Assembly (NCBI GenBank): GCA_964500645.1
Contig: CAZCOH010000003.1
Location: forward strand, 23,536 to 87,535
DNA: 64,000 bases
Direction: 5' to 3'
Source: an uncultured Dehalococcoidia bacterium
GTDB lineage: Bacteria > Chloroflexota > Dehalococcoidia > Lucifugimonadales > UBA826
The position numbers and the translations under genes are program-made. The notes beneath the pieces are model-generated. The model ran no database searches. It worked only from the letters and a program-made list of their open reading frames with translations, and was not told the origin of the DNA. Below are positions 12,862 through 51,086 of this stretch, piece after piece. How positions within the stretch are numbered: position 1 is the first letter of the stretch; every line of letters starts with the position of its first letter.

Positions 12862-12878
12862 TTGATCTCCATTTCCTA

Positions 12879-13643
12879 TCAGTATCCTGGGAATACTCCG
12901 AACAGATAGACTACAGTGAATATTACTATCCAAACTACGTCTACAAAGTGCCAATAAAGTGCTGCTAGATCTAGGTCCAAGTTTTTCTCAGGAGTGACAA
13001 TTCCTCGCTTAAATGATAAGAAAAATATAGACAAAAGCCATACCACTCCCAAAGTGACATGAGCACCATGGAAGCCAGTAAGTGTAAAGAAAGTGGTGCC
13101 AAACAAATTTGTTTGAGGCTTGAGGCCGTATTTTTCATCTACATGGTGATCGGTTTTAACAAGACCGTTTTCATCAATACATTCCTTATTGAAAAAGTGT
13201 TCATCACCAGGTTTTACGTGCTTGCCTTGAGCTATATCTTCGCCAATTTCAGAGCATTCGAAATGCACATGGTAGTTTGCAAAACTGGCGAATTCATATA
13301 CTTGGAAGCCTATAAAAGTTGAACCCATTATTGCAGTAGATACCATCCAGATACGAAAACCCTTTATGTTTCCACGGGTTAGTGCAGCATAGGCTAAAAC
13401 CATGCTCATACTACTGATCAGAAGTACGAACGTGCTAACAGATGTTACTGGTATATCGAAAACATCCATAGGCATAGCCCCTGATAGGCTTTTACCTTTG
13501 TATACCAAGTACGTCGCTATTAACGACCCGAAAAACATGCAGTCAGACCCTAGGAATGCCCACATCAGCATTTTCCTGTGGTTTAGACCAGTGTATGTCT
13601 CCTCGTGTTCGCCGTGTACAGGCGCTGTATGTTCTTGTGCCAA
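12879..13643 (-). CDS. ctaE: Cytochrome c oxidase subunit III (5-helix form) with a His/Cys-rich loop insert
   Basis: FFTLTGFHGAHV and LYWHFVDVVWIVIF. Confidence 0.93.
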   Translation of the reverse strand: MAQEHTAPVHGEHEETYTGLNHRKMLMWAFLGSDCMFFGSLIATYLVYKGKSLSGAMPMDVFDIPVTSVSTFVLLISSMSMVLAYAALTRGNIKGFRIWMVSTAIMGSTFIGFQVYEFASFANYHVHFECSEIGEDIAQGKHVKPGDEHFFNKECIDENGLVKTDHHVDEKYGLKPQTNLFGTTFFTLTGFHGAHVTLGVVWLLSIFFLSFKRGIVTPEKNLDLDLAALYWHFVDVVWIVIFTVVYLFGVFPGY

Positions 13644-13658
13644 ACTATTTAGCCTCTC

Positions 13659-15527
13659 TTAGTGTCCACTATCTTCATCTGGGTCATTCACAGGTTCAAG
13701 AGACCAAGCATAAACCCCTACAAAACCGATGAAGGTGCCGATTATTGCTATCGCCCACGGAACGATCAGATCATTGAATACGACGCCGTATGCTGCAATG
13801 AAAACTCCCAAAGATACAACGAGCGGCCAATATGAAGGCTGAGGGAGGTGGATTCCGTGGCCACTTTCTTCTTCGTAACCTCCGGATCCTCCGGAAGCAG
13901 GAACCTCTCTATGGGGATTACCTTGCTTTGTCGCCCACCAGTCATCTAATGATCTCACAACAGGTATCTCTTTGAAATTGTATTCTGGCGGCGGTGAAGG
14001 TATGGACCATTCAAGTGTCCGTGCATCCCATGGATCCCCTGGTGCAGGCTCTCCGTTTTTCCAACTGTTTACCATGTTGTAGATAAAGACAAGGAATCCG
14101 GCGATTAGTATAAATACCCCGAATGTGGATACACCATTCCATAGTTCCCATCCCATTCCATCTACATAGGTGTATATCCTGCGTGGCATACCGTCGAGCC
14201 CAACAAAATGCATAGGGAAGAAAGACAGGTTTTGACCAATCATCATCAACCAGAAATGTATCTGCCCTTGTTTTTCATTGAACATCTTTCCAGAGAACTT
14301 AGGGAACCAAAAATAAACTCCGGACATCAGAGCCATGATGGCCCCACCGAACAACACATAATGAATATGTGCAGGTATGAAATATGTGTCTTGTTGTTGT
14401 GCGTCTGAAGCGGAAACTGCGTGCATGACTCCACTGATTCCACCGATCAAAAACATTGCTATGAATCCCAATGAGAAAACCATGGGAGTATTTAGTCTTA
14501 ACGAACCTCCCCATACTGTCCCCATCCAGTTAAAAACCTTAATCCCGGTAGGTACGGCTATAAGCATAGTCGTTATTGTAAATACAGCGTTTGCAACAGG
14601 GCCAAGTCCCACTGTAAACATATGATGGCTCCAAACCATCCACCCCATGAAGGCAATTATAGCTCCGGCGAGCACAACAGTTGTGTAACCGAATAGAGGT
14701 TTTTTCGAAAATACAGGTATAACTTCTGACACTATACCCATCGCAGGTAGGATCAATATGTATACCTCAGGGTGGCCAAAAACCCAAAAAAGATGCTGCC
14801 AAAGAACTACGCTTCCACCTTGCGCTACATTGAAAAAGTTAAAGGCGAAGTATCTATCGAAGGTGAGTTCTATAAGTGCGACGGTAATTACCGGAAATGC
14901 AAGTACTAACAATATAGCTGTTAGAAAGCTCATCCACGTAAACAAAGGCATCCTCATCATGGTCATGCCTGGTGCTCTCATATTTATGATCGTCACTATA
15001 AAATTGAATGCGGCGGCTAGAGAGGCTATCCCTAGTACCTGCAAGCTAATAATCCAAAAATCAATTCCTTTACCTGGATTTTGGTCAATTGAAGTTAAGG
15101 GAGCGTATCCGAACCATCCAGCGTCGGTTGCTCCTCCTATCCAACTGAGTTTTAGCATTATTGCTCCTGCTAAAAATGTCCAGTAGCTAAACGCATTAAG
15201 TCGAGGGAATGCAACGTCACGCGCCCCTATTTGGAGGGGGATTAGAAAGTTGAAAAATGCGGCACCCATGGGCATTATGGCTAGAAATATCATGGTTGTA
15301 CCGTGCATAGTAAATAGCTGGTTGTAAACAGCTGCACTCACTATGTCCAACTCGGGGCCACTTAGTTGGATTCTCATTAAGGTTGCTTCTATACCACCCG
15401 TTATGAAAAGAATAAAAGCCGTGACACCGTATAGTATCCCGATCTTTTTGTGATCTATTGTCGTTATCCAGTTCCATATTCCTGTCGGATGGACCGGTCT
15501 GGGTATCGCTAACGGGAATGTACTCAC
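13659..15527 (-). CDS. ctaD: Cytochrome c oxidase subunit I (type A1)
   Basis: FTMHG, GHPEVY, WSHHM, HIHY. Confidence 0.97.
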   Translation of the reverse strand: MSTFPLAIPRPVHPTGIWNWITTIDHKKIGILYGVTAFILFITGGIEATLMRIQLSGPELDIVSAAVYNQLFTMHGTTMIFLAIMPMGAAFFNFLIPLQIGARDVAFPRLNAFSYWTFLAGAIMLKLSWIGGATDAGWFGYAPLTSIDQNPGKGIDFWIISLQVLGIASLAAAFNFIVTIINMRAPGMTMMRMPLFTWMSFLTAILLVLAFPVITVALIELTFDRYFAFNFFNVAQGGSVVLWQHLFWVFGHPEVYILILPAMGIVSEVIPVFSKKPLFGYTTVVLAGAIIAFMGWMVWSHHMFTVGLGPVANAVFTITTMLIAVPTGIKVFNWMGTVWGGSLRLNTPMVFSLGFIAMFLIGGISGVMHAVSASDAQQQDTYFIPAHIHYVLFGGAIMALMSGVYFWFPKFSGKMFNEKQGQIHFWLMMIGQNLSFFPMHFVGLDGMPRRIYTYVDGMGWELWNGVSTFGVFILIAGFLVFIYNMVNSWKNGEPAPGDPWDARTLEWSIPSPPPEYNFKEIPVVRSLDDWWATKQGNPHREVPASGGSGGYEEESGHGIHLPQPSYWPLVVSLGVFIAAYGVVFNDLIVPWAIAIIGTFIGFVGVYAWSLEPVNDPDEDSGH

Positions 15528-15582
15528 TTATGCGCCTCGCTTTTCAAAGACGGTGATTTCTTTTTTAAAGTGTCCAAATTGT

Positions 15583-16740
15583 TCATTTAAGCGTTGTCAG
15601 ATATGAAACTAAAGCAGATAGTTGATTCTCTGTTAAAGCTCTGTCAGGGTCAGTGTAAACAGCAGCTTGTGCAGACATAATGTTCCCCTGTTTTATTGAC
15701 TCTGGGTTTTCTATCCATTTCCTCAGGTTTTCTTGTAGATAGCCATCATTTACCGGACCACCATGTCCATCGGTATTATCCAACATTCCTGCTGCGAGAT
15801 CTCTTCTAGAAGCTACATGAGCCAGGTTCGGGCCTACTCTTCCCTTGGAACCTTTTTTGACTACGGTTTTTAACGCGTGGCAACCGCTGCATCCGGCACT
15901 TTTAAAGGTTGCAGATCCTTCTTCCACAAGTGGATCAGTGGACACCAAGGCTGGTTTCGATTGTTCTGAGAGCCATTTGTCGAAATCTGATTTTTCTACG
16001 GCTATCACTTTAAACTTCATATTGGCATGAGAAGTACCACAGTATTCCGCACACTGACCATAGTATTCTCCGGGTTCGTCCGCTTGAAACCACATGTAGT
16101 TTCCTTCGGATGGCACCATGTCCACTTTACCTGCTAATTTTGGTACCCAAAAACTGTGGATAACATCCACTGACTCGAGGTTGATTTTGATAGGCTCGTT
16201 GATTGGTATATATACCTCGTTGGCAGATACAATCTCTTCCTCTGGATTATCGGGATTAGGGTATCTAAATTCAAACCACCATTGGTGACCTATTGCCTCA
16301 AGAGTATATTCGTCTTTTGCTGTGTTGGGAGCATCGCTAGCGTAGAAAAGAGCATCAATAGTTGGGAACATTAATATGGCGAGTAATATCAATGGTATTA
16401 CAGTCCATGTTATCTCTAATTTATGATTGCCGTGTGTCTGCTGAGGTATATCATCTTCGTTTTTCATTCGATATTTAAATATCGAATAGATCAATACCGC
16501 TTCGACTAAGACGAAGACTATCATCCCTCCGGCCAAGATCCACCAGAAAATATTCAATTGGGATTCCGCTACGGGCCCTCTAGGGTCGAAAGTAGATTGA
16601 TTATTATCAGGATTGATAATGACGCAGCCTGCCAAAAGGGCGGTCATGGCTAAAGCCGCTAGGAGAGATGTTATCTTACTACGTAGGGAAGATTTCATTA
16701 ATTGTGCTTCCGAGTCCACTTCAATTATATTTATACTCAA
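15583..16740 (-). CDS. ctaC: Cytochrome c oxidase subunit II with a fused cytochrome c (caa3); start may be ATG 16698
   Basis: LAGC lipobox, DVIHSFW, CAEYCGTSHANM CuA site and CSGCH heme c motif. Confidence 0.95.
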   Translation of the reverse strand: MSINIIEVDSEAQLMKSSLRSKITSLLAALAMTALLAGCVIINPDNNQSTFDPRGPVAESQLNIFWWILAGGMIVFVLVEAVLIYSIFKYRMKNEDDIPQQTHGNHKLEITWTVIPLILLAILMFPTIDALFYASDAPNTAKDEYTLEAIGHQWWFEFRYPNPDNPEEEIVSANEVYIPINEPIKINLESVDVIHSFWVPKLAGKVDMVPSEGNYMWFQADEPGEYYGQCAEYCGTSHANMKFKVIAVEKSDFDKWLSEQSKPALVSTDPLVEEGSATFKSAGCSGCHALKTVVKKGSKGRVGPNLAHVASRRDLAAGMLDNTDGHGGPVNDGYLQENLRKWIENPESIKQGNIMSAQAAVYTDPDRALTENQLSALVSYLTTLK

Positions 16741-16778
16741 TCACAAGGGAAAAATCTATCAAATTTCCCCTTGCTGAG

Positions 16779-17681
16779 TCAAGGTAAAACATTAGTTAAT
16801 CCAAAGTCCATCCACGCTATCATTCCATCTATCATAATCGATCCGAAGCTTACAGCGAGGTAAAGGAGAGAAAAAAGATAAATTGGCAACGCGAGCCGTA
16901 TGTTTGATTCACGCATTAATTTCCAAGACATCCATGAGAATATTAGGACGAATATGACGTTTGTAAGGCCGTATATTATGCCTAGTCTATCCACAGTTAA
17001 AGCGGTGATTATAACGACTGCCATTAAAATCCAGGTATAAACAAAAATCTGTTTTTTTGTGTTCTCTACTCCTTTAACTACTGGCAGCATAGGAACTCCT
17101 GCTCTCGCATAGTCGTCTTTCAATATTAGTGATAATGCCCAAAAATGCGGAGGGGTCCAGACGAATATATTTACAAACAACATGATCGGAGCTGGGTCAA
17201 GTATGTTGCCCGTTACAGCAGCCCAACCAACCATTGGAGGTATAGAGCCTGCAGCGCCTCCGATGACAATATTTTGTGAAGTCGTTCTTTTCAGTAACAT
17301 CGTATAAACAAAAACGTAAAACAATGTTGCTGCAAGAGTGAGGATTGCACTTATGAAATTTGCAAATTGCCACAATATGGCAAAAGCCACCAAATTCAAA
17401 ACAATTCCAAATATTAATGCAGTTAATGGACCTATAGACCCAGATACTAAGGGCCTTCCGTCAGTTCTGGACATTTTGTCATCTATGTCACGCTCTAGGT
17501 ATTGATTGATTGTGTTAGCACCGCCAGCCCCGAGCGCTCCCCCTGTCAGAACTGCTAGAGTGATCCATAAATCAGGTATCCCTTCTGAAGCCAAAAACAA
17601 ACCACCAACTGCAGTTACTAGTAAGAGAACTATAATCTTTGGCTTAGTTAAGGCTATTAAATCGGAAAATAATGTAGTCAT
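16779..17681 (-). CDS. ctaB: Protoheme IX farnesyltransferase (heme O synthase)
   Basis: ERDIDDKMSRTDGRPL, IGGAAG, WTPPHFWAL. Confidence 0.95.
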   Translation of the reverse strand: MTTLFSDLIALTKPKIIVLLLVTAVGGLFLASEGIPDLWITLAVLTGGALGAGGANTINQYLERDIDDKMSRTDGRPLVSGSIGPLTALIFGIVLNLVAFAILWQFANFISAILTLAATLFYVFVYTMLLKRTTSQNIVIGGAAGSIPPMVGWAAVTGNILDPAPIMLFVNIFVWTPPHFWALSLILKDDYARAGVPMLPVVKGVENTKKQIFVYTWILMAVVIITALTVDRLGIIYGLTNVIFVLIFSWMSWKLMRESNIRLALPIYLFSLLYLAVSFGSIMIDGMIAWMDFGLTNVLP

Positions 17682-17692
17682 ATTTGATTTGT

Positions 17693-18682
17693 CTAAGTAC
17701 TTCTCTCTTCAAAGATGAACGTAGTAACTACAGCCAAGAGCACAGTTGCCATCCAGACCAATGTGGCGACACTTAAATGGACTGCTTTTAAGTGGGCGTC
17801 GAACCCTGTCCAGATCATTACAGCCCCAAGCAAAATTTGTAAAGTTATAAGTCCCAAAGTTGTGTGTGCAGCCTTTCGTATAGCAGCGTTGTCTCTTCTT
17901 TTCCGTATGAATTGTATAGCAGTAATACCAATATATACCGTTACTATTGCCGCGACATAGCGGTGCAGCATGTGTATCGCGTATTCAAATCCGTCGGGAA
18001 ATAATTCCCCTCTGCATAAAGGCCATGTTGAGCATGCGGAACTTGCTCCAATTCCTATCATGTAAGATCCAGAAAGCATCAACAGAAAAACGAGAATTAG
18101 TGCGGTGACTAGTTTTCCAGCTGAACCCATATCTATTGTAATACTAACTTCACCCTGACCGATTTTATTTTGAAATGCTATCCAGACTAATATCAAGAGA
18201 CTAGCAATGAGAAATTGGGCAATACTTAAATGTATTAATCGGAGCCACCAAGCTAACTCCGTCAGTACTGTTAGTCCTCCAAGCAATCCTGCGGCAATTA
18301 CCAAGAATAATGACCCTAAGCAGAGTCGGAAACTAACACTATCACGTTTTCTTTCCAGTGCTGCAACCCAGAGAGTTATGATGACCAGGATGCCTAGAAC
18401 GGTTCCTGTTAACCTGTGTGAATATTCAACCAATGTATGAAATTCAAACGGGGGGATCAACTCTCCATGGCACAGAGGCCAGTCTGGACAACCCAATCCT
18501 GACTCCGAGGCTCGGACAATTCCGCCTAAGGTAATTTGACTAAACGCCACGACTAAGCTTATCAAAATTAACAACTTTAATGTAGCAGATCTTGAAATTC
18601 TTGGGTTGGGTAGTCTAGTGGAAATCGGTGCCTCTCTTATCGACAGCAAACACTGTGTGTTTTTTTTCACTAATACACTCAT
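17693..18682 (-). CDS. ctaA: Heme A synthase (COX15/CtaA)
   Basis: GLGCPDWPLCHG, EYSHR, HMLHR and conserved His residues in TM helices. Confidence 0.92.
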   Translation of the reverse strand: MSVLVKKNTQCLLSIREAPISTRLPNPRISRSATLKLLILISLVVAFSQITLGGIVRASESGLGCPDWPLCHGELIPPFEFHTLVEYSHRLTGTVLGILVIITLWVAALERKRDSVSFRLCLGSLFLVIAAGLLGGLTVLTELAWWLRLIHLSIAQFLIASLLILVWIAFQNKIGQGEVSITIDMGSAGKLVTALILVFLLMLSGSYMIGIGASSACSTWPLCRGELFPDGFEYAIHMLHRYVAAIVTVYIGITAIQFIRKRRDNAAIRKAAHTTLGLITLQILLGAVMIWTGFDAHLKAVHLSVATLVWMATVLLAVVTTFIFEERST

Positions 18683-23900: not shown

Positions 23901-24791
23901 TTACGGTGAAACGGCCAATTCTGTTAACAATTTTTTTGTAGATACAATGTGTTTGTTTAGGCGCATTTTTTCCGGTTCAATTCCCAGTGCAAGCCCCACA
24001 AGTTGAGGGAGATGAATTATGGGGAGGTCAATTTCCCTCTTAGCCATCGACGATGCGTTTGGTTGATATCCATCGAGATTCAGGTGACACAGAGGACACG
24101 GGGTCACCATAGCATCAGCTCCTCGGTCTTTGGCATCTGATGTGTGGTTTGCAACCATTTTCACTGAGTTTTCAGGGTTAATAGTTAGTATAGGGAATCC
24201 GCAGCAAAGGGTTTTACCTGGAAAATCTACGACTTCCCCTCCAACGGCTTCAATAACTAATTCCAAGGCTTGTTTTCTTTCGGGTTTTTCGTTAAAACCA
24301 AGGGCTTCTGAAGGTCTGACGATGTAACAACCGTAAAATGGGGCTAGCTTCAGACCGTCCAGCTTTCGGACAATTTTGGATTCGAAAACTTCCATTCCTA
24401 GATCTTCTGCAATTATCCACAACAAGTGCTTGGGTTCTACGGTTCCTTTGTATTCTAGACCTTCCTCTCGAAGGTCCTCATTTATTGAGGCAAGATATTC
24501 GGGATCTTTTAAGAGGCGCTGATTTGCTTGTGCCATCACACCCTGACAAGTACTGCAGATAGTCATTAAAGGGAGGCCAGACTTTTCCACCATAGCAAAA
24601 GTGCGCGCGTTTAGTGTGTCTCCCAGTCGTTCATTTTTTTCTTGGAGTACTCCCGCACCTGTACAAGAAGCCCCTTTTAAGGCATCTTCATCCAGTTCTA
24701 AACCAAGTATTTGGCAAACTTCTATTGTGGCGGAGTAGAGTTCAGGGCAAGCACCCCGAGAAACACAACCGGGATAAAAAGCATATTTCAT
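23901..24791 (-). CDS. HdrB-like CCG-domain protein (SdhE-type anchor)
   Basis: YPGC, CSTC, FYGC, CCGFP, TPCPLCHLNLD. Overlaps the sdhB stop by 4 nt. Confidence 0.88.
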   Translation of the reverse strand: MKYAFYPGCVSRGACPELYSATIEVCQILGLELDEDALKGASCTGAGVLQEKNERLGDTLNARTFAMVEKSGLPLMTICSTCQGVMAQANQRLLKDPEYLASINEDLREEGLEYKGTVEPKHLLWIIAEDLGMEVFESKIVRKLDGLKLAPFYGCYIVRPSEALGFNEKPERKQALELVIEAVGGEVVDFPGKTLCCGFPILTINPENSVKMVANHTSDAKDRGADAMVTPCPLCHLNLDGYQPNASSMAKREIDLPIIHLPQLVGLALGIEPEKMRLNKHIVSTKKLLTELAVSP

Positions 24792-25744
24792 TTCTTCCCC
24801 TCAACTTTGTCAAAGATTCTTTTTATATTTTCCGAACCAGGTAATTTTTTATGAATTATTGGTGGGACTTTTCCTGCCCTTTGCGAACGTATGGCCAATG
24901 GTATTAGCCCGATCATAGCTTTTATGTTGAATATCCCAAAACTTTTTATCGGTAGCTTTAATTCATCGAGCCATCCGGAATGTCTGACCGAATCTACGAA
25001 GGCGTTTGCGTGCCTAGCTCCATTGGTGTTTTCATGCCCTGCTTCCATTACTTTTTCTCTGAGTGCCATTATTCTGTCCATTGGAGCCACTCCTTTTGGA
25101 CATACTTCGACACATTTCATACACCTTGTACAATCCCATACTCCACCTGACTTGTTAAGATTGCTAAGACGTTCTTCCTGTGCATCATCTCTAGGATCTC
25201 CTACAAACCTGTACGACTTGGCTAATGCCGCCGGACCCAGGAAATTTTCGTCCACCTCCATTACCGTACAATCAGATACACATGCTCCACATAGAATACA
25301 TGAGACTACTCCTGCTAGATGAAGCATATCCTCGTCGGGAGCCAAATATTCTGTTTCAGGCTCTTCCCCTTCCGGCTGTAACCAGGGTTCTACAGCCTTA
25401 ACATTTTTCCAAAATGGCTGGAAGTCTACTACAAGATCTTTAATAACAGGTAAATTACCTGCAGGCTCGACCGTTATGGCAGATCCATCTTTAGGCAACA
25501 TGTCTATTATTTTGGTGTTACATGCTAGACCTGCCTCACCATTTACTCTCATGGCGCATGATCCGCAAATGGCGCTTCTACATGAGCATCGAAGGCTCAG
25601 AGTTCCGTCCACGTCTTCCCTGATCTGAATGAGAGCATCCAAAATCGTAGAGGAATCATCCATTTCAATTTGGTATTCTTGAAAATGTGCGACGGTATTT
25701 GTAGATTCTGGGTCGTATCTGCGAACGCTCAATTTAACTTGCAT
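24788..25744 (-). CDS. sdhB: Succinate dehydrogenase/fumarate reductase Fe-S subunit (type E)
   Basis: CRSAICGSC [2Fe-2S], CILCGACVSDC and CTRCMKCVEVCP. Confidence 0.93.
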   Translation of the reverse strand: MQVKLSVRRYDPESTNTVAHFQEYQIEMDDSSTILDALIQIREDVDGTLSLRCSCRSAICGSCAMRVNGEAGLACNTKIIDMLPKDGSAITVEPAGNLPVIKDLVVDFQPFWKNVKAVEPWLQPEGEEPETEYLAPDEDMLHLAGVVSCILCGACVSDCTVMEVDENFLGPAALAKSYRFVGDPRDDAQEERLSNLNKSGGVWDCTRCMKCVEVCPKGVAPMDRIMALREKVMEAGHENTNGARHANAFVDSVRHSGWLDELKLPIKSFGIFNIKAMIGLIPLAIRSQRAGKVPPIIHKKLPGSENIKRIFDKVEGKK

Positions 25745-25764
25745 ATTGTTCGATTCCTATTAGC

Positions 25765-27438
25765 CTAGTACTGTCTAACGGTGGGAGTCCAATCGGTTAT
25801 CACTACATCTTTGTATGATAGATTTGGTTTGCCTTCTACATCCGTAACTACTATATGTTTTAGCCAGTTTTCGTCATCCCTGTCAGGCATGTCGGTTCTT
25901 GTGTGTGCCCCTCTACTTTCTGTTCTATCACTGGCACTTACTGCAATAGCTTCTGCACACTCTGTCATGAAGTCCAATTCCAAAGTGAATATTAAATTTG
26001 TGTTGAAAGTTTTAGTTTTATCAGCCACATATACCGATTTTGCACGCTCTTTTATGGCTGCAATTTTTTTAACGCCCTCGGACATACCATGTTCTTCCCG
26101 AAACACCCCAAAATGTTCCTTCATAGTCGTTCCCATATCGAATCTAATTTGCCCAAACGACTCATTTTTTTCGTTGGATAACAATCTTTGTATGTTGTCC
26201 TTGTCTGAGTTTGCTGCCGAGTCATCAATATTTAAGTGTGTTTTGTTTCTGCTTAACTCTGCAGCATGCACCCCTGATCTACGACCGAACACCAAGGTGT
26301 CTAGTAGAGAATTTGCACCTAGTCTATTACCCCCATGAACACTGACACAGGCTACTTCACCGGCAGCATACAGACCTGGAACGTCGGTTTCTCCATCTAT
26401 ATTTGCTTTCACTCCGCCCATTTGATAGTGCATGCCTGGCATAATTGGTACAGGTTCCTTCACCATATCAACATTTGCAAAGTCCATTGCCAATTCTCTG
26501 ATTTGCGATAGCCTTTCACTAATGTATTTTTCACCCAGATGTCTGAGATCTAAAAGAACACATCCGTCTATGCCCCTTCCCTCATTTATTTCTGTCTGCT
26601 CGCACCTTGATACGACGTCTCTAGAAGCAAGTTCTTTAAATTCAGGTGCATACTTCAACATAAATCTGTCATTTTCTGAGTTTAGAAGATATGCGCCTTC
26701 GCCTCTGGCCGCTTCACTAATTAAAACCCCACTGCCTTTTAATGTGGTTGGGTGATATTGAACCATTTCCATATCCATGAGTGAGGCGCCAGCCTGATAG
26801 GCTAGGGTCATGCCGTCGCCAGTGCAAATCATCGCATTGGTACTTGGTTCAAATACTCTTCCTAATCCACCTGCGGCCATTATTACTGCCTTAGCCCTAA
26901 CTACCTCGATTTTTCCTGTTCTTATATCCATCATTACCACGCCACCGCAAACCCCATCTCTCACAATTAAGGAAAGTACGAACCATTCTTCATAGACAAA
27001 TGCCCCAGCTTTCACTATTTGTTCGTATAAGACATGCAGAAGTGCTTGCCCGGTGAAGTCCGCAACAAAAAATGTTCTATCTTTACGTTGTCCCCCGAAA
27101 CTTCTTGTACCCAGCCTACCTTCCTCATCTCTGTTGAAAATGGCTCCCATGTGTTCCATGGCGATTACTTCCGATCCGGCTTCCCTGCACATTACCTCAA
27201 TAGCATCTTGATCACCTAAAAAGTCACTGCCCTTTATCGTGTCGTACGCGTGGTCTTTCCAATCGTCTCCTCGGTCTGTAAGGGCGGCATTTATGCCGCC
27301 TTGAGCAGCATTAGAATGACTTCGTACTGGATGCACTTTTGAGACGACTGCAACGTCTGCGCCCGCTTCTTTTGCTGAAAGCGCAGCTCTCATACCTGCT
27401 AGTCCTGCACCAATAATTAAAACATCGTGATCTTGCAT
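25765..27438 (-). CDS. sdhA: Succinate dehydrogenase/fumarate reductase flavoprotein
   Basis: GAGLAG, RSHSNAAQGG, QYHPT, ASRDVVSR, HYQMGG, HGGNRLGANSL, ESRGAH. ATG at 27438. Confidence 0.95.
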   Translation of the reverse strand: MQDHDVLIIGAGLAGMRAALSAKEAGADVAVVSKVHPVRSHSNAAQGGINAALTDRGDDWKDHAYDTIKGSDFLGDQDAIEVMCREAGSEVIAMEHMGAIFNRDEEGRLGTRSFGGQRKDRTFFVADFTGQALLHVLYEQIVKAGAFVYEEWFVLSLIVRDGVCGGVVMMDIRTGKIEVVRAKAVIMAAGGLGRVFEPSTNAMICTGDGMTLAYQAGASLMDMEMVQYHPTTLKGSGVLISEAARGEGAYLLNSENDRFMLKYAPEFKELASRDVVSRCEQTEINEGRGIDGCVLLDLRHLGEKYISERLSQIRELAMDFANVDMVKEPVPIMPGMHYQMGGVKANIDGETDVPGLYAAGEVACVSVHGGNRLGANSLLDTLVFGRRSGVHAAELSRNKTHLNIDDSAANSDKDNIQRLLSNEKNESFGQIRFDMGTTMKEHFGVFREEHGMSEGVKKIAAIKERAKSVYVADKTKTFNTNLIFTLELDFMTECAEAIAVSASDRTESRGAHTRTDMPDRDDENWLKHIVVTDVEGKPNLSYKDVVITDWTPTVRQY

Positions 27439-27479
27439 TAAAAAAAGTACCCCCAAACTTACGAACAACTCAACAGAAA

Positions 27480-27508
27480 ACGATAGCACAGGGATTGTAA
27501 CCTAACAA
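27480..27508 (-). promoter_or_regulatory. Possible sdhA promoter
   Basis: TTGTTA-17 nt-TATCGT with an extended -10 TG on the minus strand. Confidence 0.35.
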
Positions 27509-43978: not shown

Positions 43979-44728
43979 CTAATCGTCTTTCCAGAATCGT
44001 TCCTCTAAGAACTCAAAGCCTAGCGGAACTACTTGTTGTTTGACATCCTCAATCATTCCAGGATGACCGCAGGCGTAGATCATTGTGTTGATAGTCTCTA
44101 GTCCGAACTCGCGTATTTTTGATTGCACGATTTTGTTGACTCTGCCTTTTTCGCCATTCCATGAGTCATTTTTATTTTCTGTTGGTCTACTTACTGTCGG
44201 CACAAAGGTTAATAAATCAGGGCGCTCTTTAGCTATGGCTATAAATTCGTCATCATAAACAAACTCATCTTGGTAGCTTGCTCCTTCAAGGACGTAAAAG
44301 TGATGGCCTTCCTTATTAGCCTCAATATAGTCCCTAACAAAACTGACGTAGGGTACAACTCCAGTTACAGTCGACACCAGGAACTGATTCTGCTTTTCTT
44401 CTTTAAAAGTGAATATACCTTTCGCTCTGGGTCGTATAGTTACTTTGTCCCCTTCATGCAGGTCCCATAAAATAGGAGTGAGTACACCACCTTCTTTAAC
44501 AGGTACTAGTTCGATGAATAATTCGATGTATTTTTCATGTGGTGCTGATGCTATTGAATACGCCCTTTCAATACCTTTATGGCCTATTGTGCAGTATTGT
44601 CCGGGTTTGAAACTGTATCCATCGGGTTTCTCCAGCCATACAAGTGTGAGATCTTCTGTTTTATCTTGTCTCTCAACTATCTGAACTTCCGCTAAGGGAG
44701 GCTTTTTAATTAACTTTTTAGTGGCCAT
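43979..44728 (-). CDS. fpr: Ferredoxin/flavodoxin-NADP+ reductase (bacterial Fpr type)
   Basis: FKPGQY, RAYSIAS, YACGHPGMI, EERFW. Confidence 0.85.
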   Translation of the reverse strand: MATKKLIKKPPLAEVQIVERQDKTEDLTLVWLEKPDGYSFKPGQYCTIGHKGIERAYSIASAPHEKYIELFIELVPVKEGGVLTPILWDLHEGDKVTIRPRAKGIFTFKEEKQNQFLVSTVTGVVPYVSFVRDYIEANKEGHHFYVLEGASYQDEFVYDDEFIAIAKERPDLLTFVPTVSRPTENKNDSWNGEKGRVNKIVQSKIREFGLETINTMIYACGHPGMIEDVKQQVVPLGFEFLEERFWKDD

Positions 44729-44762
44729 TCATTCTCCATATTTTTTAATGTCGTGTACGGTT

Positions 44763-47438
44763 CTATTCTTTTTCTATTCGTACATGCTTCACTTGCAGAG
44801 GCTGTACCTTGAGCATAGGATCTTCATCCTTACTTGCTGTCAATTGCTCCATCAGACTTCCAAACAGGCTTGTTGAAGCTACTAGGCCGCTATGCAATCC
44901 GTTGAGGTGAGCAGTGCCTTCTTTTTCGAAGTCCTCACCGATTAATTTTATTTTGTCGCCTTCTGAAATCCCCGCACTTTGTGCGTCCTGTTCATTTAGT
45001 TCGATTATTTCTGTCCGGGTTATCGAATGCATATTATCTATAATTGATATGTCTGCTTCCCTGTCTGGTTCGTGCAATACGCGACCAGGTACAAATGACA
45101 TTGGGAATTGAGGATCGTGATGAGTTGCATCAATTGATTCTAGCGTTAGAGGTTGGAAGCTATATTTATCTGGCTCCGAGTATTCCCAAATTTGACCAAA
45201 CTTTTCTATTTGATTGATATCTAAGCTATTGTAGTGTTCAACGTTAGCTTGCAATTCCTCGAAGATTTCTAGCTCACTGCTAAAGTCAAAGGACGAGCTT
45301 CCCATTCTCTTAGCAAGTTGAGATATTATTCTCCAGTCCTCGTCTGCATCCCCTGTTGTCCCAATCGCCTTTCTGACTTTGTGCACTCTTCTTTCCATGC
45401 TTGTGTAGGTTCCTGACTTCTCTGCGAACGTGACAGAAGGGAAGACAATGTCGGCTTTATCCGTTAAATGGTTTTCGAAGGTGGAGTGTACAATTAGTAG
45501 TTCAGACTGGCCCAAAGCTTCTTCTAGACCACCTGATATCTGGTCAGAATAGGATATGTTATCTCCTATTATCTGGACTGCTTTAATCTTTCCTTTAGAA
45601 ATAGAGTCAGACAGGTTAACAATTCCGACGCCATCTTTTGAAATCGACTTATAACCTGGACCTAGATTTGGCACGCATCCAACGTCTCTTGAACCTTGTT
45701 GATTAGCACCTGAGAATAGAGGATATAGTCCGGCTGAAGGCTTACCTATATTACCGGTCAGCAGAAGTAGATTCACCAATGCTTCTACCGTTTTCGGTTT
45801 GAGGCTTTTATCAATAGTGTCTAGGCTATATAAAACCGAAGAGGAGTCTGCTTTGGCGAATAGCCTAGCAGCTTCTCTTATAGAATCTTGAGGCAAGCCT
45901 GTTAGTTCTGAAATTTTTATCAGATCAAAATCCCAAATCGAGTTTCTAAGTTCTGAGAATCCCTGACAATTTTCTGTTGAGAATTCGTGATCCTCTAATG
46001 ATTCATCTAAGATGGTTCGGATTATTCCCCCAATTAGGTGACTTTCTGAATTCAGTTTTGGCCTTAGCCATAAATCTGAATATCTGGTTAGTTCAGTTTC
46101 TCTTTGATCAATTACGATCAGCTTTGCTCCCTTGGAAACGGCCTGTTTTATTGGTACAGAAGCAACATTTTGATCTTCGGTAATGTTTGATGAGACTACC
46201 AATATGCAATTTGAGTCTAGTAATTCCCAGGTACGTGATGTTGACCCCTGAATCCCTATCATGGATTCAAGAGGCTCAACCAAATCAGGATTTGTGTTAG
46301 ATGCGACGTCCACGTTGGGTGAGTTCATAATCTGACGTGCAAACTTTTGAGCAATAAAATTATCCTCGTTAGTTCCGCGGTCAGATGCCACAATGGCATA
46401 GTCTCCGTTTTTGTAATTCGCTAGTTTCTCAGACGCATAATCCAAAGCTTCTGGCCAGGTGGATTCAGTCAATGTGCCGTCTATTCGGATTAAAGGTTTG
46501 GATAATTTTTTCTTATGATTTACAAAATCCAAACCGAATTTGCCTTTAAAGCACGCCATTCCATGGTTTGCTTCAGCTTCACGAGAAGCTATAGACCGTA
46601 TTACCTTGTTACGTTTATTTACGTCCAAATCTAACTGGCAACCAACTGGGCAGTGTGGGCACGTGGTAGAGATTTGTTTTTCTGCTTTGTCCCATTTGTA
46701 GTCCCTTTCCACGATGGCTCCAGTAGGACAAACATCTATACATGCTCCACAGAATTCACAACCTGATTCTAAAAGGGAAATTCCTTGCGAGGTTCCTATT
46801 ATGCTCCGTCCTGAACGTTCCTTTAGGGTTATGGCTTTATCACCTCTAACCTCGTCACAGGCCCTAACACATCTCGAGCATACGATGCACAGATTCATAT
46901 CCATGTCCCAATATGGGTCTTTTACATCGAGTGGGAGATGACGATTGTTGTAGGTAAGAGGAGTGGTTAAATCCATCTCCATATATCTTACCGTGTCTTT
47001 CAGTTCACATCTTTCATTTTTAGGACACGTTACACACCTGTCATTTACAGTAACATGGCGCAGGCAAACATCAGTTGGACCACACAGATCGATTCGATGG
47101 CAATTAAGACATCCATGCGGATGTTCAGATATAAGAAGCTCCATTATGCCTTTTCTGAGGTCTACGATTTCGTCAGTATTTGTCTCTACCCTCATGCCTT
47201 CCGAAACTGGTGTAGTACATGAGGCAGGGCTGCCAGGAAGGGCTCGGTAACTTCCATCTGGTGTGGGTGCCTCTGCTTTAACTACACACATCCGGCATGC
47301 GCCATAAGGCTTCATTCCTGGGTAATAACAGAGGTACGGAATGTATAGGCCATTGTCCATAGCAGCTTGTATGATCACGCTTCCAGAATCAGCTTGAACC
47401 TCCACTCCATCTATCGTCAGATTAACTTTATCTGCCAT
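44763..47438 (-). CDS. NuoG/FdhA-like Fe-S protein with a molybdopterin-oxidoreductase fold, apparently lacking the Mo ligand
   Basis: [2Fe-2S] C..CRMC..C, His-ligated cluster, CIVCSRC, CEFCGACIDVCP, TCPHCPVGC..CFKG. No Cys/Sec-His after NVD. Confidence 0.85.
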   Translation of the reverse strand: MADKVNLTIDGVEVQADSGSVIIQAAMDNGLYIPYLCYYPGMKPYGACRMCVVKAEAPTPDGSYRALPGSPASCTTPVSEGMRVETNTDEIVDLRKGIMELLISEHPHGCLNCHRIDLCGPTDVCLRHVTVNDRCVTCPKNERCELKDTVRYMEMDLTTPLTYNNRHLPLDVKDPYWDMDMNLCIVCSRCVRACDEVRGDKAITLKERSGRSIIGTSQGISLLESGCEFCGACIDVCPTGAIVERDYKWDKAEKQISTTCPHCPVGCQLDLDVNKRNKVIRSIASREAEANHGMACFKGKFGLDFVNHKKKLSKPLIRIDGTLTESTWPEALDYASEKLANYKNGDYAIVASDRGTNEDNFIAQKFARQIMNSPNVDVASNTNPDLVEPLESMIGIQGSTSRTWELLDSNCILVVSSNITEDQNVASVPIKQAVSKGAKLIVIDQRETELTRYSDLWLRPKLNSESHLIGGIIRTILDESLEDHEFSTENCQGFSELRNSIWDFDLIKISELTGLPQDSIREAARLFAKADSSSVLYSLDTIDKSLKPKTVEALVNLLLLTGNIGKPSAGLYPLFSGANQQGSRDVGCVPNLGPGYKSISKDGVGIVNLSDSISKGKIKAVQIIGDNISYSDQISGGLEEALGQSELLIVHSTFENHLTDKADIVFPSVTFAEKSGTYTSMERRVHKVRKAIGTTGDADEDWRIISQLAKRMGSSSFDFSSELEIFEELQANVEHYNSLDINQIEKFGQIWEYSEPDKYSFQPLTLESIDATHHDPQFPMSFVPGRVLHEPDREADISIIDNMHSITRTEIIELNEQDAQSAGISEGDKIKLIGEDFEKEGTAHLNGLHSGLVASTSLFGSLMEQLTASKDEDPMLKVQPLQVKHVRIEKE

Positions 47439-47440
47439 TT

Positions 47441-49180
47441 TTAATCTCCAGCCGCGAAGTCAGTTGCATATGGTCTTGTGTTTTTAGGTACGATTTTCGG
47501 AGAATTGCAAGCGTCCGTTGGACATATACCATCCTCGATATGAGAGCGGAAATCCTCTTCAAAATGTGTAATGGCAGATCTGATCGGTCCGAAACCTAGT
47601 TGACCATGTCCGCAAAGGGATCCTGCTTCCATGGTGCCACCTATACTTTTCATCAACTCCATGTCACCAGGCTTACTTTCAAAATTCGCTATTCTTTCTA
47701 CTATTTCTAAAAGATGTTCCATCCCTAATCGACACGGAAAACACTTTCCGCACGATTCAAATTGACAGAAAGCTACTAGAACTCTGGTTAGGTCGACTGC
47801 ACAGACTTTATCACTGCCCACAATTATTCCACCGGAACCGAATATTGCGCCTGCTTCCCTCATTTCATCAAAATCTATATGGATGTCTCTGCTGTCTGGC
47901 CCGAGTACACCACCTAAAGGTCCTCCAGTTTGGAGTAATTTAAGAGATCTACCTTCTGCTACCCCACCTCCTAAATCGTCTACGACTTGACCCAGGGTCA
48001 TTCCCATTGAGACTTCGTACAGCCCAGGCCTGTTGACGTCACCACTAAGACAAACAATGGCTGTTCCAGTACTTCTGTTTACGCCGATTGAGGAGAACCA
48101 ATCTGCTCCTTTTGAAATTATTTCAGGAGCGTATGACAGGGATTTTACGTTATTTATGTTACTAGGCTTACCCCATACGCCAAAGGCGGCAGGAAATGGT
48201 GGGCGATATCGTGGCATGGATCGCTTGCCTTCAACAGCTTCCATCAATGCGGTTTCTTCCCCTGCTACATATGATTCACCTGTTAGTGCAACTTCCACGT
48301 CAAAGTTGAAGTCACTATCAAATATATTTTTCCCTAGCACACCAATTTCATATGCCTCTTTAATAGCCTGTTCAGTTCTGTCTATTGGGCCGTTATGGCC
48401 ATGACGTATGAAAACTATTCCGTTTGTCGCTCCTGTAGCATATCCAGCTATTGCTAGTCCCTCTATAAGGGTGTGAGGATCACTCTCTAAAATCCCCTTA
48501 TCGTTATAAGCTCCTGGATCTCCCTCTTCACAGTTACACAGAATGTATTTGGTTGGACCTGGAGATCCGACCAGAAAACTCCATTTCACGCCAGTAGGGA
48601 ATGCGGCTCCACCTCTGCCACGTAGTCCAGAATTTTTGACTTCGTCAATGACCTCGGATGGTGACATCATAGATATCGCTTTATTTAGACCACTGTACCC
48701 ATCATTAGCTATATATTGGAGAATGTCAGCGGGAGCTATGTGCCCTGCATTCCTTAATGCCACTCTATTTTGAAGCTTTATTCCTGGAATTGAACTTAGA
48801 GGCACTACACCAGAGCTAGTGATATCTTCCTCACCAATATAACCGAGTATTTTGCTCCCAGGTATAGAATCCTCGATAAGGTAAGATTGAACAATAGTAG
48901 GAATTTCTTCAGGGGTCACATTCTTGAAAAATAATCTCGGATGACCTTTCTTTTTTATTTCAATTATTGGTTCGGCATAGCAAAGGCCTAGACATCCAAC
49001 TTCATCCACATTTGCTTCGACGTTTAGGCTGGATAATGTTTCTAAAATAGTTTTTTTGACCCGAAACGCTCCCGCTGCGTGTCCACACATAGCACTTCCT
49101 ACTCGAATCAGAGGGGTGTCTCCATAGACGCGGTCGTTCCAGTGAACATCTGCTTTTTCTTTAATACTTTCGTAAGTCAA
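47441..49180 (-). CDS. NuoF/HydB-like FMN/NADH-binding subunit with an N-terminal thioredoxin-like domain
   Basis: GLRGRGGAAFPTG, EEGDPG, YVAGEETAL, ESCGKCFPCR, SLCGHG. Confidence 0.9.
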   Translation of the reverse strand: MTYESIKEKADVHWNDRVYGDTPLIRVGSAMCGHAAGAFRVKKTILETLSSLNVEANVDEVGCLGLCYAEPIIEIKKKGHPRLFFKNVTPEEIPTIVQSYLIEDSIPGSKILGYIGEEDITSSGVVPLSSIPGIKLQNRVALRNAGHIAPADILQYIANDGYSGLNKAISMMSPSEVIDEVKNSGLRGRGGAAFPTGVKWSFLVGSPGPTKYILCNCEEGDPGAYNDKGILESDPHTLIEGLAIAGYATGATNGIVFIRHGHNGPIDRTEQAIKEAYEIGVLGKNIFDSDFNFDVEVALTGESYVAGEETALMEAVEGKRSMPRYRPPFPAAFGVWGKPSNINNVKSLSYAPEIISKGADWFSSIGVNRSTGTAIVCLSGDVNRPGLYEVSMGMTLGQVVDDLGGGVAEGRSLKLLQTGGPLGGVLGPDSRDIHIDFDEMREAGAIFGSGGIIVGSDKVCAVDLTRVLVAFCQFESCGKCFPCRLGMEHLLEIVERIANFESKPGDMELMKSIGGTMEAGSLCGHGQLGFGPIRSAITHFEEDFRSHIEDGICPTDACNSPKIVPKNTRPYATDFAAGD

Positions 49181-49215
49181 TTTTTTGTGACCGCCGTTTT
49201 AATTTTGCTATGGAT

Positions 49216-49704
49216 TTAATGGGAGATATCATCTTTGGACATGTTTTTGATTAAATCTACGACATGGTCAGGGTTAACTTTGCCAAAGAGTTCGTGGTTT
49301 AAATTTACAACTGGAGCTTGTGAACAGGCTCCTAAACAAGTGTTAAACCTGAAAGATACTTTGCCGTCAGAGGTGTCACCTTCTGTTTCTAGTTTTAATT
49401 CATCGAGCACTTTGTCTAATATGTTAGCTGCTCCAGCAAGATGGCAGGTTGGACCCCAACATACTTCTACGGTGTGATCTCCAGGGGGTGTAAATCTAAA
49501 GTTGGGGTAAAAAGAGGCAACCCCGTATACAGCGTTTTTAGAAGTTCCCATTTTTATAGCTACTTGCTCTATTGCTTCATTGGGGATATATCCAATCTCG
49601 TCTTGAACAGCAAGCAGAGAAGAAAGCACTGTCACGGTAGGGCGTTTCTGGTTCTGTATGGCTATGTTAATTTGATCGACTAGACTTTCAGTTTCTGGTG
49701 CCAA
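49216..49704 (-). CDS. NuoE/HydC-like [2Fe-2S] subunit
   Basis: GVASFY, CWGPTC, TCLGAC; TTG start with GGTGAGG upstream. Confidence 0.9.
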   Translation of the reverse strand: MAPETESLVDQINIAIQNQKRPTVTVLSSLLAVQDEIGYIPNEAIEQVAIKMGTSKNAVYGVASFYPNFRFTPPGDHTVEVCWGPTCHLAGAANILDKVLDELKLETEGDTSDGKVSFRFNTCLGACSQAPVVNLNHELFGKVNPDHVVDLIKNMSKDDISH

Positions 49705-49775: not shown

Positions 49776-51086
49776 CTAAACGAAATTTTTGATGACAATA
49801 TCTGCTACTTCATGACCCATTTTTACGCTGTAATTTGTACCTCTGTCTTCTGGGTAAATCTGTGTGGTATTCGCCAAATACAAATTGTCTACTCCAGTCA
49901 AATGTGAGGGGATAGTTGAAGAATAGTTTTTACCAATAATAGGTTGTGCTCCGTCTATTTTGAAATGATATTTACGCAGCATCCAGGACTTCTCGAAATT
50001 CGGATTTATTTTCGAGATATGAGGAAGATAATGTTCTAGAAGTTCTTGTTCGCTCATTTGGTACATTTCGCTATCTCGAGTAAGGTAATTTGAAAGATAA
50101 ACTATGTGTTTTCCACCGTAGTTTTCAGTACCGACCAGATTCGTGTGTTCTATAACACCTACAAACGGTGTATCCCGATCTGCTACGTTGAGCCAGTATA
50201 TATTGGATAATGGTCTGTCGAGAACTAGTATAAGTAGGACTGCAGACATGTAAGGTACGGTAGACAATTTTTTTCTGTAGTCGTCACTGAGTCCCTCAGT
50301 AATCATATTAAAGATGTGAGATGGGGTCGTTGAAATCACGGCGTCAAATTTTTTAAAATGATTGTTTTTTCCCACTTCAATCCCTTCTAATTTGTTAGAA
50401 GTCACTTTGATTTTATTTACAGGAGTGGACATCACAATGTTTGCTCCCTGCGAGATTGTTTTATTCAACAGAGTTTCAAAGACTTCTTTAAAGCTACCAC
50501 TAGGGTATCCAAGCATTTCTTTTGAAACTCCTTTTCTCGATGCAAAGCGGGTATTCATTTTTCCCCATACCCATGCCATTCCAACTTCTTGATAATGGGT
50601 TTCCCCAAATTTGCCTTTCAGCATAGGTTCCCAAAAAGCTTTGAAGGCTTTTTCGCCTGCATTTTTCTGCAACCAATCCACAGCAGTTATATTTTCAACT
50701 TCTGCCCAGTTTTTTATAAACCGTATCTTCAGTGAGGAAAGACCGAGCCTGATTCTGTTGAAAGGAGATAGTGGTGTGTATTTAAGCAAGTCTAGAGGGG
50801 ATGAGAAGTTGTAAATTTTTCCGCCTGATAAAGTACCTACGCTAGAAGGGAACCAATCAATAGTTTTTTCAAGACCGATTTCTTTGCATAATTTGATAAT
50901 GTCAATATCGCTTGTGAACCAGTGATGATAGCCCTTTTCCAAAGGGAACCCTTCTATATTAAAAGTAGCTGCGTGGCCACCTACAAAATCATCCCGTTCG
51001 TATATAGTCACGTCATGATTTCTTTTTGTTAAATAATAGGCGGCCGTAAGGCCAGTCGCGCCCGCTCCTAGTATAGCTATCTTCAT
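49776..51086 (-). CDS. FAD-dependent oxidoreductase (amine oxidase/PPOX-like fold), substrate unknown
   Basis: GAGATGLTAA, ERDDFVGG, YHHWF, YPEDRGTNY. Confidence 0.75.
   Translation of the reverse strand: MKIAILGAGATGLTAAYYLTKRNHDVTIYERDDFVGGHAATFNIEGFPLEKGYHHWFTSDIDIIKLCKEIGLEKTIDWFPSSVGTLSGGKIYNFSSPLDLLKYTPLSPFNRIRLGLSSLKIRFIKNWAEVENITAVDWLQKNAGEKAFKAFWEPMLKGKFGETHYQEVGMAWVWGKMNTRFASRKGVSKEMLGYPSGSFKEVFETLLNKTISQGANIVMSTPVNKIKVTSNKLEGIEVGKNNHFKKFDAVISTTPSHIFNMITEGLSDDYRKKLSTVPYMSAVLLILVLDRPLSNIYWLNVADRDTPFVGVIEHTNLVGTENYGGKHIVYLSNYLTRDSEMYQMSEQELLEHYLPHISKINPNFEKSWMLRKYHFKIDGAQPIIGKNYSSTIPSHLTGVDNLYLANTTQIYPEDRGTNYSVKMGHEVADIVIKNFV

Follow-up and report, generated by a model that had tools for sequence, protein, structure and literature searches.

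The locus considered here raises the question of what is achieved by a set of NuoE-, NuoF- and NuoG-like genes that is accompanied by a gene for a flavoprotein of the ferredoxin-NADP reductase (FNR) family. The four genes, termed E, F, G and FNR below, occupy positions 43979–49704 of a 64,000-nucleotide (nt) stretch of contig CAZCOH010000003.1 (assembly GCA_964500645.1) from an uncultured Dehalococcoidia bacterium; this whole stretch is referred to as the window. An earlier reading of the letters alone (the sequence-only reading) had described the genes as co-oriented, and the coordinates of the open reading frames (ORFs) bear this out: four ORFs follow one another on the minus strand in the order E-F-G-FNR, with intergenic gaps of 35, 2 and 34 nt. 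It is tentatively proposed here that they encode one soluble iron-sulfur (Fe-S) flavoprotein complex, non-bifurcating, which would link the NAD(H) and NADP(H) pools without ferredoxin. The features of the operon are as follows.

49216..49704, minus strand: E subunit, a NuoE/HydC/NfnC-like thioredoxin-fold [2Fe-2S] protein of 162 amino acids (aa), ligands C82, C87, C123 and C127
47441..49180, minus strand: F subunit, NfnB/HydB-like, with a core for NADH and flavin mononucleotide (FMN), 579 aa
47441..47524, minus strand: C-terminus of F, with CPTDAC, the tail ..PKNTRPYA.. and the stop codon, and no B3/B4 cluster domain
44763..47438, minus strand: G subunit, FdsA-like, 891 aa
46995..47123, minus strand: doubled His/Cys cluster motif of G, residues 106–148
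46287..46316, minus strand: remnant formate dehydrogenase (FDH) active-site loop of G, NVDVASNTNP, residues 375–384, located by alignment to FdsA
45693..45722, minus strand: PLFSGANQQG of G, with Phe at the position of the FDH catalytic Arg, located by alignment to FdsA
43979..44728, minus strand: FNR-family flavoprotein without an Fe-S domain, 249 aa

Relatives and metal sites of the E, F and G subunits

E was matched by Pfam as 2Fe-2S_thioredx (PF01257, 4.6e-38), and F as Complex1_51K (5.9e-38), NADH_4Fe-4S and SLBB. Among solved structures, the best relative of E was NfnC (9n5u_C, 111 bits, compared with 74 for Nqo2 and 56–68 for FdsG), and that of F was NfnB from the Nfn-ABC of C. saccharolyticus (9bov_B, 495 bits), with HydB, StnB and T. 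sibiricus NfnB at 457–478 bits, FdsB at 338–356 and Nqo1 at 335. Judged by these alignments, the nearest relatives of E and F are the NfnC/NfnB and HydC/HydB subunits of the bifurcating Bfu enzymes and not NuoE/F or FdsG/B. The four ligand cysteines of E are invariant in 79 orthologues.

F begins with a thioredoxin-like domain (C32, C63, C67) that aligns to NfnB and StnB, continues through the NADH/FMN core to an N3-type [4Fe-4S] site (C477, C480, C483, C523), and closes with a Zn-linker-like part (H547, C553, C558) and a short conserved tail in the place where a 2x[4Fe-4S] ferredoxin domain would be. The residues C32, C63 and C67, in the domain that holds the B5 site in BfuB, as well as H547, C553 and C558, in the part comparable to the Zn/B2 linker site of BfuB, are conserved, and the NTRP of the tail is at least 90% conserved in 79 orthologues. 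The end of F directly after CPTDAC, without the C-terminal 2x[4Fe-4S] domain, had been noted before and was confirmed: the protein stops 21 residues past C553-PTDA-C558, and its alignments to HydB, NfnB and StnB (chains of 584–602 residues) end at about residue 525–540, just before that domain.

The B3 and B4 clusters of the C-terminal ferredoxin domain of BfuB have been treated as invariant in true Bfu enzymes (PMC9304861), and A201, M203, F281 and GGPSG of T. sibiricus NfnB have been described as Bfu-specific at the FMN/NADH site (PMC12018979). At these sites (T. sibiricus numbering), F keeps A201, has N for M203 and Y for F281, and reads GGPLG for GGPSG. Tyrosine is the residue of NuoF at this site. 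As only Ala201 is kept among the Bfu-specific residues, F is a Bfu-type subunit stripped of the hallmarks of bifurcation.

In G, Pfam matched Fer2_4, NADH-G_4Fe-4S_3, Fer4_Nqo3, Molybdop_Fe4S4 and Molybdopterin (PF00384, 2e-41), and did not find a GltD domain. The N-terminal centres comprise a [2Fe-2S] site (C37, C48, C51, C74), a doubled His/Cys motif and two ferredoxin-type [4Fe-4S] sites; they are followed by the MopB [4Fe-4S] site (C260, C263, C267, C296), and then by a MopB domain that has the C-terminal barrel and lacks the catalytic residues. All Fe-S ligands of G are invariant in 81 orthologues, so that the earlier statement that every Fe-S motif is kept holds, although four additional invariant cysteines had been missed.

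G aligned to FdsA of R. capsulatus (6tg9_A) over its full length (residues 5–835, E 2.5e-119, 403 bits), whereas NuoG chains matched only its N-terminal 380–440 residues (114–160 bits). A comparable picture was obtained by Foldseek: the top matches of the AlphaFold2 model of G were FdsA-type FDHs, and NuoG chains ranked 17 and below. The mean predicted local distance difference test (pLDDT) value of this model was 75, with the MopB part mostly above 90.

The catalytic Cys-His of FDH is gone from G, because DTCARVCHSPT of FdsA faces DVASNT-NPDL (FdsA loop NTDTCARVCH, G loop NVDVASNTNP), and the catalytic Arg is Phe, because PLRGQNNVQG faces PLFSGANQQG. Both losses hold in all 120 of the listed homologues with a readable motif. 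The NVDVASNTNP sequence had already been recognized as standing in place of the Cys/Sec-His ligand; the full-length alignment adds the loss of Arg, and the idea of a silent FDH fold is supported by the sequence. Within the 81 orthologues, identity was lowest in the molybdopterin part of G (39–56%) and highest in the Fe-S part (83–89%), which fits a scaffold combined with a working electron wire.

When compared with FdsGBA(D) of Rhodobacter capsulatus and Cupriavidus necator (6tg9, 6vw7), the operon has the same gene order (gamma-beta-alpha, corresponding to E-F-G) and an alpha-type subunit in which a NuoG-like N-terminus is joined to a MopB domain; the Fds enzymes, too, do not bifurcate, and their beta subunit lacks a ferredoxin domain. 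The differences are the absent catalytic Cys, His and Arg and the doubled His/Cys motif in G, the closer relationship of E and F to Bfu subunits than to FdsG/FdsB, the FNR gene after G, and the lack of fdsC or fdsD nearby. Neither fdsC (FdhD-like), fdsD nor cofactor-insertion genes were found among the Pfam-labelled neighbours in the window and in loci L001–L004, and no cofactor-biosynthesis genes were found within the window by Pfam labels.

These data also bear on whether G could still be a Mo/W enzyme with a non-canonical ligand, for example the Ser of the SSN loop, and a substrate partnered with NAD(P)H. The MopB fold and the C-terminal barrel are confidently predicted, the PF00384 match is strong, PF01568 was detected in most longer homologues, and the MopB [4Fe-4S] site and the next Lys (CFKG) are invariant. 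Such an activity is nevertheless considered highly improbable. The SAR202-type family has lost Cys-His and Arg throughout, conservation within G is lowest in the MopB part, no fdsC/fdsD-type or cofactor-insertion genes were found nearby, and the cofactor-contact motifs are degraded in the alignment and consensus, with NPxxxHP replaced by N(I/M)TE(D/E)QNV, DPR by DQR, and the TRR of the barrel gone. The syntenic orthologue of one lineage (L088:8001-10721, 906 aa, on a 2.9-Mb contig) would speak for activity, as a Cys still occupies the ligand position and the catalytic Arg is retained, whereas the His is lost; it may represent an intermediate stage of active-site decay.

The doubled motif of G reads H106-x3-C110-x2-C113-x5-C119, followed by C125-x9-C135-x2-C138-x5-C144-ELKD, which corresponds to the usual His-ligated [4Fe-4S] site plus four extra invariant cysteines. 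All eight ligand candidates, together with H108, H114 and H128, are invariant (A1 and 81 orthologues), and the motif is the best-conserved segment of G, with a mean identity of 89%. Of the solved chains, FdsA matched only the first half, in a gapped alignment, while the others aligned to the second half; both halves were found in no solved structure. The four extra cysteines probably form an additional [4Fe-4S] or Zn site beside the His-ligated cluster.

A search of 1.8 billion representatives revealed that the doubled motif is common to many more distant G-like proteins, some with intact Cys-His/Arg. A specific association of the motif with the dead-FDH family was ruled out, since at least one representative with an intact Cys-His/Arg site carries it (P0269).

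The FNR gene and the position after G

FNR was matched by Pfam as NAD_binding_1 (PF00175, 2.9e-17), and its best solved relatives were bacterial NADPH-dependent FPRs (5tr9, 6rr3, 4b4d, 2qdx, 1a8p and 1fdr; E 1e-13 to 1e-8). With Fpr/FPR enzymes (1fdr, 1a8p, 2qdx, 4b4d, 6rr3) it shares the two-domain FAD/NADP fold, a similar length, the RxYS, SR and CG motifs and a C-terminal aromatic residue. The corresponding segments are R55-AYS for flavin adenine dinucleotide (FAD), V121-TGVVP, T178-VSRP with the Ser-Arg of the 2'-phosphate site, Y218-ACGHPGM, and the C-terminal aromatic pair F246-W247. From the Ser-Arg of TVSRP, from RAYS, YACGHPGM and the final Phe-Trp, and from the NADPH-dependent FPRs as nearest solved relatives, we infer that FNR prefers NADP(H). 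The protein differs from Fpr/FPR enzymes in being only distantly related to them (E about 1e-13), in being encoded by the last gene of a NuoEFG-like operon, and in its partner, presumed to be a cluster of G and not free ferredoxin. The doubled motif and the plant-type [2Fe-2S] domain are the candidate docking sites for FNR on G.

A genome collection was scanned for G with one genome per species, and at least 579 species genomes encode a relative. Synteny was counted in the best 80 of these at least 579 relatives, all of them Dehalococcoidia or SAR202. Complete Dehalococcoidia chromosomes with the operon include OZ244564.1, OY282441.1, OZ253472.1 and OY729417.1. E and F precede G wherever the locus extends far enough upstream, and F and G overlap by 1–11 nt in many loci. 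The sequence-only reading had staked its proposal on fpr keeping its place in relatives; FNR follows G in about 75 of the 80 species loci, mostly after a gap of 17–50 nt, with mutS next, and this check thus turned out in favour of the proposal. The identity of FNR to the copy in the window (53–92%) tracks that of G (51–92%).

Marine metatranscriptome contigs cover all four genes, with DNA carry-over in the libraries being possible. Single contigs span the E/F junction (49152–49380), the F/G junction (47329–47602) and the G/FNR junction (44653–44807). FNR appears to be co-transcribed with E-F-G.

In more distant relatives and in a sister clade, the gene content of the locus was as follows.

L087 and L090 (distant): E, F with a full 2x[4Fe-4S] domain, G, a PyrK/NfnA-like gene and a GltD/NfnB-like gene
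L089 (distant): as L087/L090, but with F fused to a GltD domain
L096 and L097 (distant): G, a PyrK-like gene and a GltD-like gene
L091/L093, L094 and L095 (sister clade): E, F, G and a GltD/NfnB-like gene in the FNR slot
L091:10871-12367, L094:7955-9367 and L095:9683-11125: the GltD/NfnB-like flavoprotein genes in the FNR slot
L088 (syntenic, no partner): F without a ferredoxin domain, and no flavoprotein gene after G

The sister-clade lineages L091/L093, L094 and L095 are 54–56% identical to one another. In all three, mutS lies downstream, and in L091–L093 amine-oxidase and LPG-synthase genes lie upstream. In L088, an opposite-strand methyltransferase gene stands where FNR would follow G.

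The ferredoxin domain of F was found in steps. In L087 and L090, F continues past CPTDAC with two CxxCxxCxxxCP motifs (two clusters); in L091, L094 and L095, a half-decayed domain is present, with one CxxCxxC motif and a lone CP (one cluster); in L088 and in SAR202, no cluster is left. Lineages differ in the NAD(P)H flavoprotein encoded in the slot after G, of which there are three unrelated kinds. Together with the stepwise ferredoxin domain of F, this is the pattern expected for a complex that always connects the NADH site on F with one for NADP(H), and it is not the pattern expected of a complex I module. Orthology of FNR to the PyrK/NfnA-like partners of distant relatives was tried and ruled out, as no similarity was detected by BLASTP.

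Upstream of the Bfu-type cluster in L090 (L090:1-3334), a second set of genes was observed. Its products are a NuoF::GltD fusion longer than 1000 aa, a NuoG-like Fe-S protein of only 230 aa and a protein with a Glu_synthase domain. The set looks like an NADH-linked glutamate-synthase-like assembly.

Additional genes were observed within the operon of some lineages. In several of them, G is followed by one or two inserted genes whose zinc-ribbon products combine a polytopic membrane domain with a conserved YxDLRxRKEG(F/Y) at the C-terminus; these genes lie between G and FNR in L023, L038, L045, L050, L059, L065, L073 and L077, and after G in L049 and L064. In L067, unrelated ORFs occupy the G-FNR gap in place of the zinc-ribbon genes. 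In six Dehalococcoidia species (L052, at 9088–9885, L053, L056, L057, L066 and L079), a co-oriented gene for a MOSC_N+MOSC protein (256–276 aa) lies between F and G. This protein has a DPRCAITT motif and no Fe-S domain of its own, and it may be a terminal reductase fed by the E-F-G module.

MOSC enzymes such as mARC and YcbX are fed by FNR-family reductases via a small carrier. An alternative follows in which E-F-G is an NADH dehydrogenase hub that feeds soluble enzymes or carriers (MOSC-type reductases, oxygenases, ferredoxin-like proteins), with FNR as a second, NADPH-fed donor or as an independent housekeeping Fpr. The inserted MOSC protein and the known feeding of such enzymes would agree with a hub, as would the doubled motif of G, which could be a new exit point; moreover, mutS is as syntenic as FNR, so that block conservation exists at this locus. 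We regard this alternative as improbable. The MOSC insertion is restricted to six loci of similar layout, and no acceptor gene is conserved across the family. The short G-FNR gaps, the junction-spanning transcript contig and the GltD-like gene in the sister-clade slot argue that the partner flavoprotein belongs to the complex.

Proposed transhydrogenation and the complex I alternative

When considering the reaction itself, the closest known systems are the Stn/Nfn-Bfu enzymes, namely StnABC of Sporomusa ovata (8oh5) and NfnABC of C. saccharolyticus (9bov) and T. sibiricus (9n5u), which provide the best solved matches of E and F (PMC10482914, PMC12018979). They too contain a NuoE-like [2Fe-2S] subunit, E being of the BfuC type, and a NuoG-like Fe-S subunit with an inactive FDH-like domain, and have an NADPH flavoprotein module at the far end of the wire. 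StnC is such a subunit, with a catalytically inactive FdhF domain and joined to the NADPH flavoprotein module; its C1/C2 clusters and the inactive FdhF domain are off-path and needed for assembly of the Stn enzyme (PMC10482914).

In the operon described here, F has no C-terminal 2x[4Fe-4S] ferredoxin-binding domain and two of the three signature residues are changed, in addition to GGPSG. The NADPH module is a separate Fpr-type FNR in place of a fused GltD domain, the FdsA architecture of G is complete up to and including the C-terminal barrel, with four extra cysteines, and the hosts are aerobes. The operon would work most like the Stn/Nfn-Bfu transhydrogenases, yet lacks the B3/B4 ferredoxin domain by which these are defined.

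In the proposed complex, F would bind NADH/NAD+ at FMN, and electrons would move from the N3-type cluster of F into G, along the [2Fe-2S]/[4Fe-4S] chain of its N-terminal third with the doubled His/Cys site, to reach the FAD of an FNR subunit, where NADP(H) would bind. E would contribute the flavin-adjacent [2Fe-2S] cluster. The FdsA-like molybdopterin domain of G, with its own [4Fe-4S], would be an off-path scaffold only, like the dead FdhF domain of StnC. FNR would accordingly be a physical subunit of the complex.

Such a complex would be derived from electron-bifurcating transhydrogenases of the Nfn-Bfu/Stn type. Within the aerobic SAR202 lineage, F would have lost its ferredoxin-binding domain, and an Fpr-type FNR would have taken the place of the GltD-type NADPH module. 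Without a ferredoxin domain, transhydrogenation would be uncoupled. In vivo, electrons would probably flow from NADPH to NAD+, because by established thermodynamics the opposite direction is uphill at the ratios found in cells.

The sequence-only reading had suggested a soluble NADH-to-NADP(H)/ferredoxin transhydrogenase. Its NADP(H) part is supported by the Nfn/Hyd-like E and F, the synteny and apparent co-transcription of FNR and the GltD/NfnB-like gene of the sister clade. The ferredoxin part is not supported, because F has no ferredoxin-binding domain and two of the three Bfu signature residues are changed.

Several observations weigh against the proposed transhydrogenase. No FNR is adjacent to G in about five lineages (L002–L004, L016, L046, L049/L064 and L088), so that E-F-G must work alone there or FNR must be encoded elsewhere. 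Synteny alone is a weak argument for FNR as partner of E-F-G, because mutS is equally syntenic and clearly unrelated. The lack of sequence similarity between FNR and the PyrK-like partners means that the partner argument rests on analogy. The Fe-S region of G (residues 99–248) had pLDDT values below 50 in AlphaFold2 with a 20-sequence alignment. Finally, an uncoupled transhydrogenase with about 8–9 metal centres is extravagant compared to SthA.

The second explanation to be weighed had been offered by the sequence-only reading as a detachable NADH input module. Here, E-F-G would serve an 11-subunit respiratory complex I as its NADH-input (N) module, with genes placed apart from the nuo operon, and would have been acquired from a Bfu/FDH-type ancestor in a recruitment of its own; FNR would be an accessory NADPH entry point or unrelated. 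The three-subunit plan is that of the complex I N-module (NuoE, NuoF, NuoG or Nqo2, Nqo1, Nqo3), with the cofactor motifs for FMN, N1a, N3, N1b, N4, N5 and an N7-like cluster, and the N-module too has a cofactor-less molybdopterin-fold domain. The FMN/NADH site and the N1a, N3, N1b, N4 and N5 ligands are all present, and all are invariant in 79–81 orthologues. The organism respires aerobically, the operon lies within a conserved housekeeping block, relatives of G occur in hundreds of species genomes, and E-F-G persists in lineages without FNR. The earlier remark that complex I of Dehalococcoidia often has no NuoEFG agrees with the literature, in which 11-subunit nuo operons are common in this class and one relative carries nuoEFG as a separate operon (PMC5736913). 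In the Geobacter Nuo-Bfu, a Bfu-type module is predicted to replace NuoEFG within the nuo operon (PMC9304861).

Other observations speak against this explanation. A six-frame motif scan detected no NuoB, NuoD or NuoH signatures in the window or in 85 loci, 80 of which were related Dehalococcoidia loci with ±10 kb, and nuo genes were also not among the Pfam labels of neighbouring genes; the absence of membrane nuo genes noted earlier was thus found to extend to relatives, and the operon never adjoins nuo genes in this set.

Curated NCBIfam cut-offs for NuoE/F/G, FDH subunits and Fpr were reached by none of the four proteins. E scored 110 bits with the best NuoE model, NF005722 (cut-off 141), and 106 with the subfamily model TIGR01958 (cut-off 142); F scored 440 with TIGR01959 (cut-off 559); G scored 303 with the NuoG model TIGR01973 (cut-off 470) and 396 with the FDH alpha model TIGR01591 (cut-off 666); FNR scored 54 with NF008178 for Fpr (cut-off 390). 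F has an extra N-terminal domain compared to the complex I N-module, G is far nearer to FdsA than to any NuoG, and relatives at the syntenic locus and beyond pair with Nfn-type NADPH flavoproteins and not with complex I genes. A complex I input module of this kind is considered rather unlikely.

A combination of the two ideas was also considered, namely that E-F-G-FNR is the input module of SAR202 complex I, arisen by a second evolutionary recruitment from a bifurcating Nfn/FDH-type ancestor, with the doubled motif as Fe-S outlet and FNR as a subunit, through which both NADH and NADPH would feed the respiratory chain. The probability assigned to it is low, and comparable to that of the hub.

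Surroundings of the operon and its significance

The neighbours of the operon in the window are housekeeping genes: mutS, aroE, a uracil-DNA glycosylase family gene, RNase J, ftsK and ilv/leu genes. The window also contains a complete operon for a caa3-type cytochrome c oxidase (SCO1, CtaG, COX4, COX3, COX1, COX2, CtaB, CtaA) and a succinate dehydrogenase with a CCG-domain subunit, and on account of these two enzymes the host is assigned an aerobic respiratory lifestyle. Their positions are as follows.

window 10752–18682: caa3 oxidase operon
window 23901–27489: succinate dehydrogenase

A PRK07233-type FAD amine-oxidase-like gene (window 49776–51086) lies 71 nt upstream of E and is preceded, up to about 56620, by a flippase-like LPG_synthase_TM gene, a PMT_2 glycosyltransferase gene and a DUF2298 gene. 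Many SAR202 and the sister clade show this amine-oxidase/LPG-synthase block in synteny with the operon. Around the operon, no riboswitch or other known RNA was detected at E up to 0.1, and scans for promoters and terminators gave counts at or below the shuffled expectation.

The sequence-only reading had further suggested that the module could feed an RdhA-like enzyme encoded in the window (4717–6036). This suggestion is not supported: the gene is about 38 kb away, and nothing similar is linked to the operon in relatives. In Pfam, its product matched nothing but Fer4_16, and that weakly (E 1.9e-6); a dehalogenase domain was not detected at the thresholds applied. A DEAD-box/MrfA-type helicase gene precedes this gene.

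No description of the operon was found in the literature searched on nuoEFG, SAR202, Stn and Bfu. Neither FNR nor ferredoxin-NADP reductase is mentioned in the survey of Bfu enzymes, where the Bfu clusters described for Chloroflexi are of the Por, Mbh and Fdh types only (PMC9304861). The operon is classified here as a derivative of the Bfu/FdsABG lineage that is aerobic and non-bifurcating, has FNR as its partner and carries an additional metal-site motif. Automated annotation mislabels its genes as NuoE/NuoF, as "molybdopterin oxidoreductase/YjgC" or as formate dehydrogenase, and metabolic reconstructions are distorted as a result.

In the dark ocean, SAR202 bacteria belong to the most abundant bacterial groups, and they rely heavily on NAD(P)H-consuming oxygenases. 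The operon appears to be part of the conserved SAR202 gene set; it is widespread in this major ocean clade and transcribed in seawater, and its doubled cluster motif has no counterpart in the structure of any solved homologue. If the complex I explanation were true, the operon would represent an independent invention of the complex I input module. If the four genes do encode the proposed transhydrogenase, they would provide an undescribed Fe-S route between NADH and NADPH, and would illustrate how an enzyme that bifurcates electrons in anaerobes became simpler in aerobes, with the ferredoxin domain of F passing from two clusters to one and to none, the formate site lost, and the NADPH module changed from the GltD type to the FNR type.

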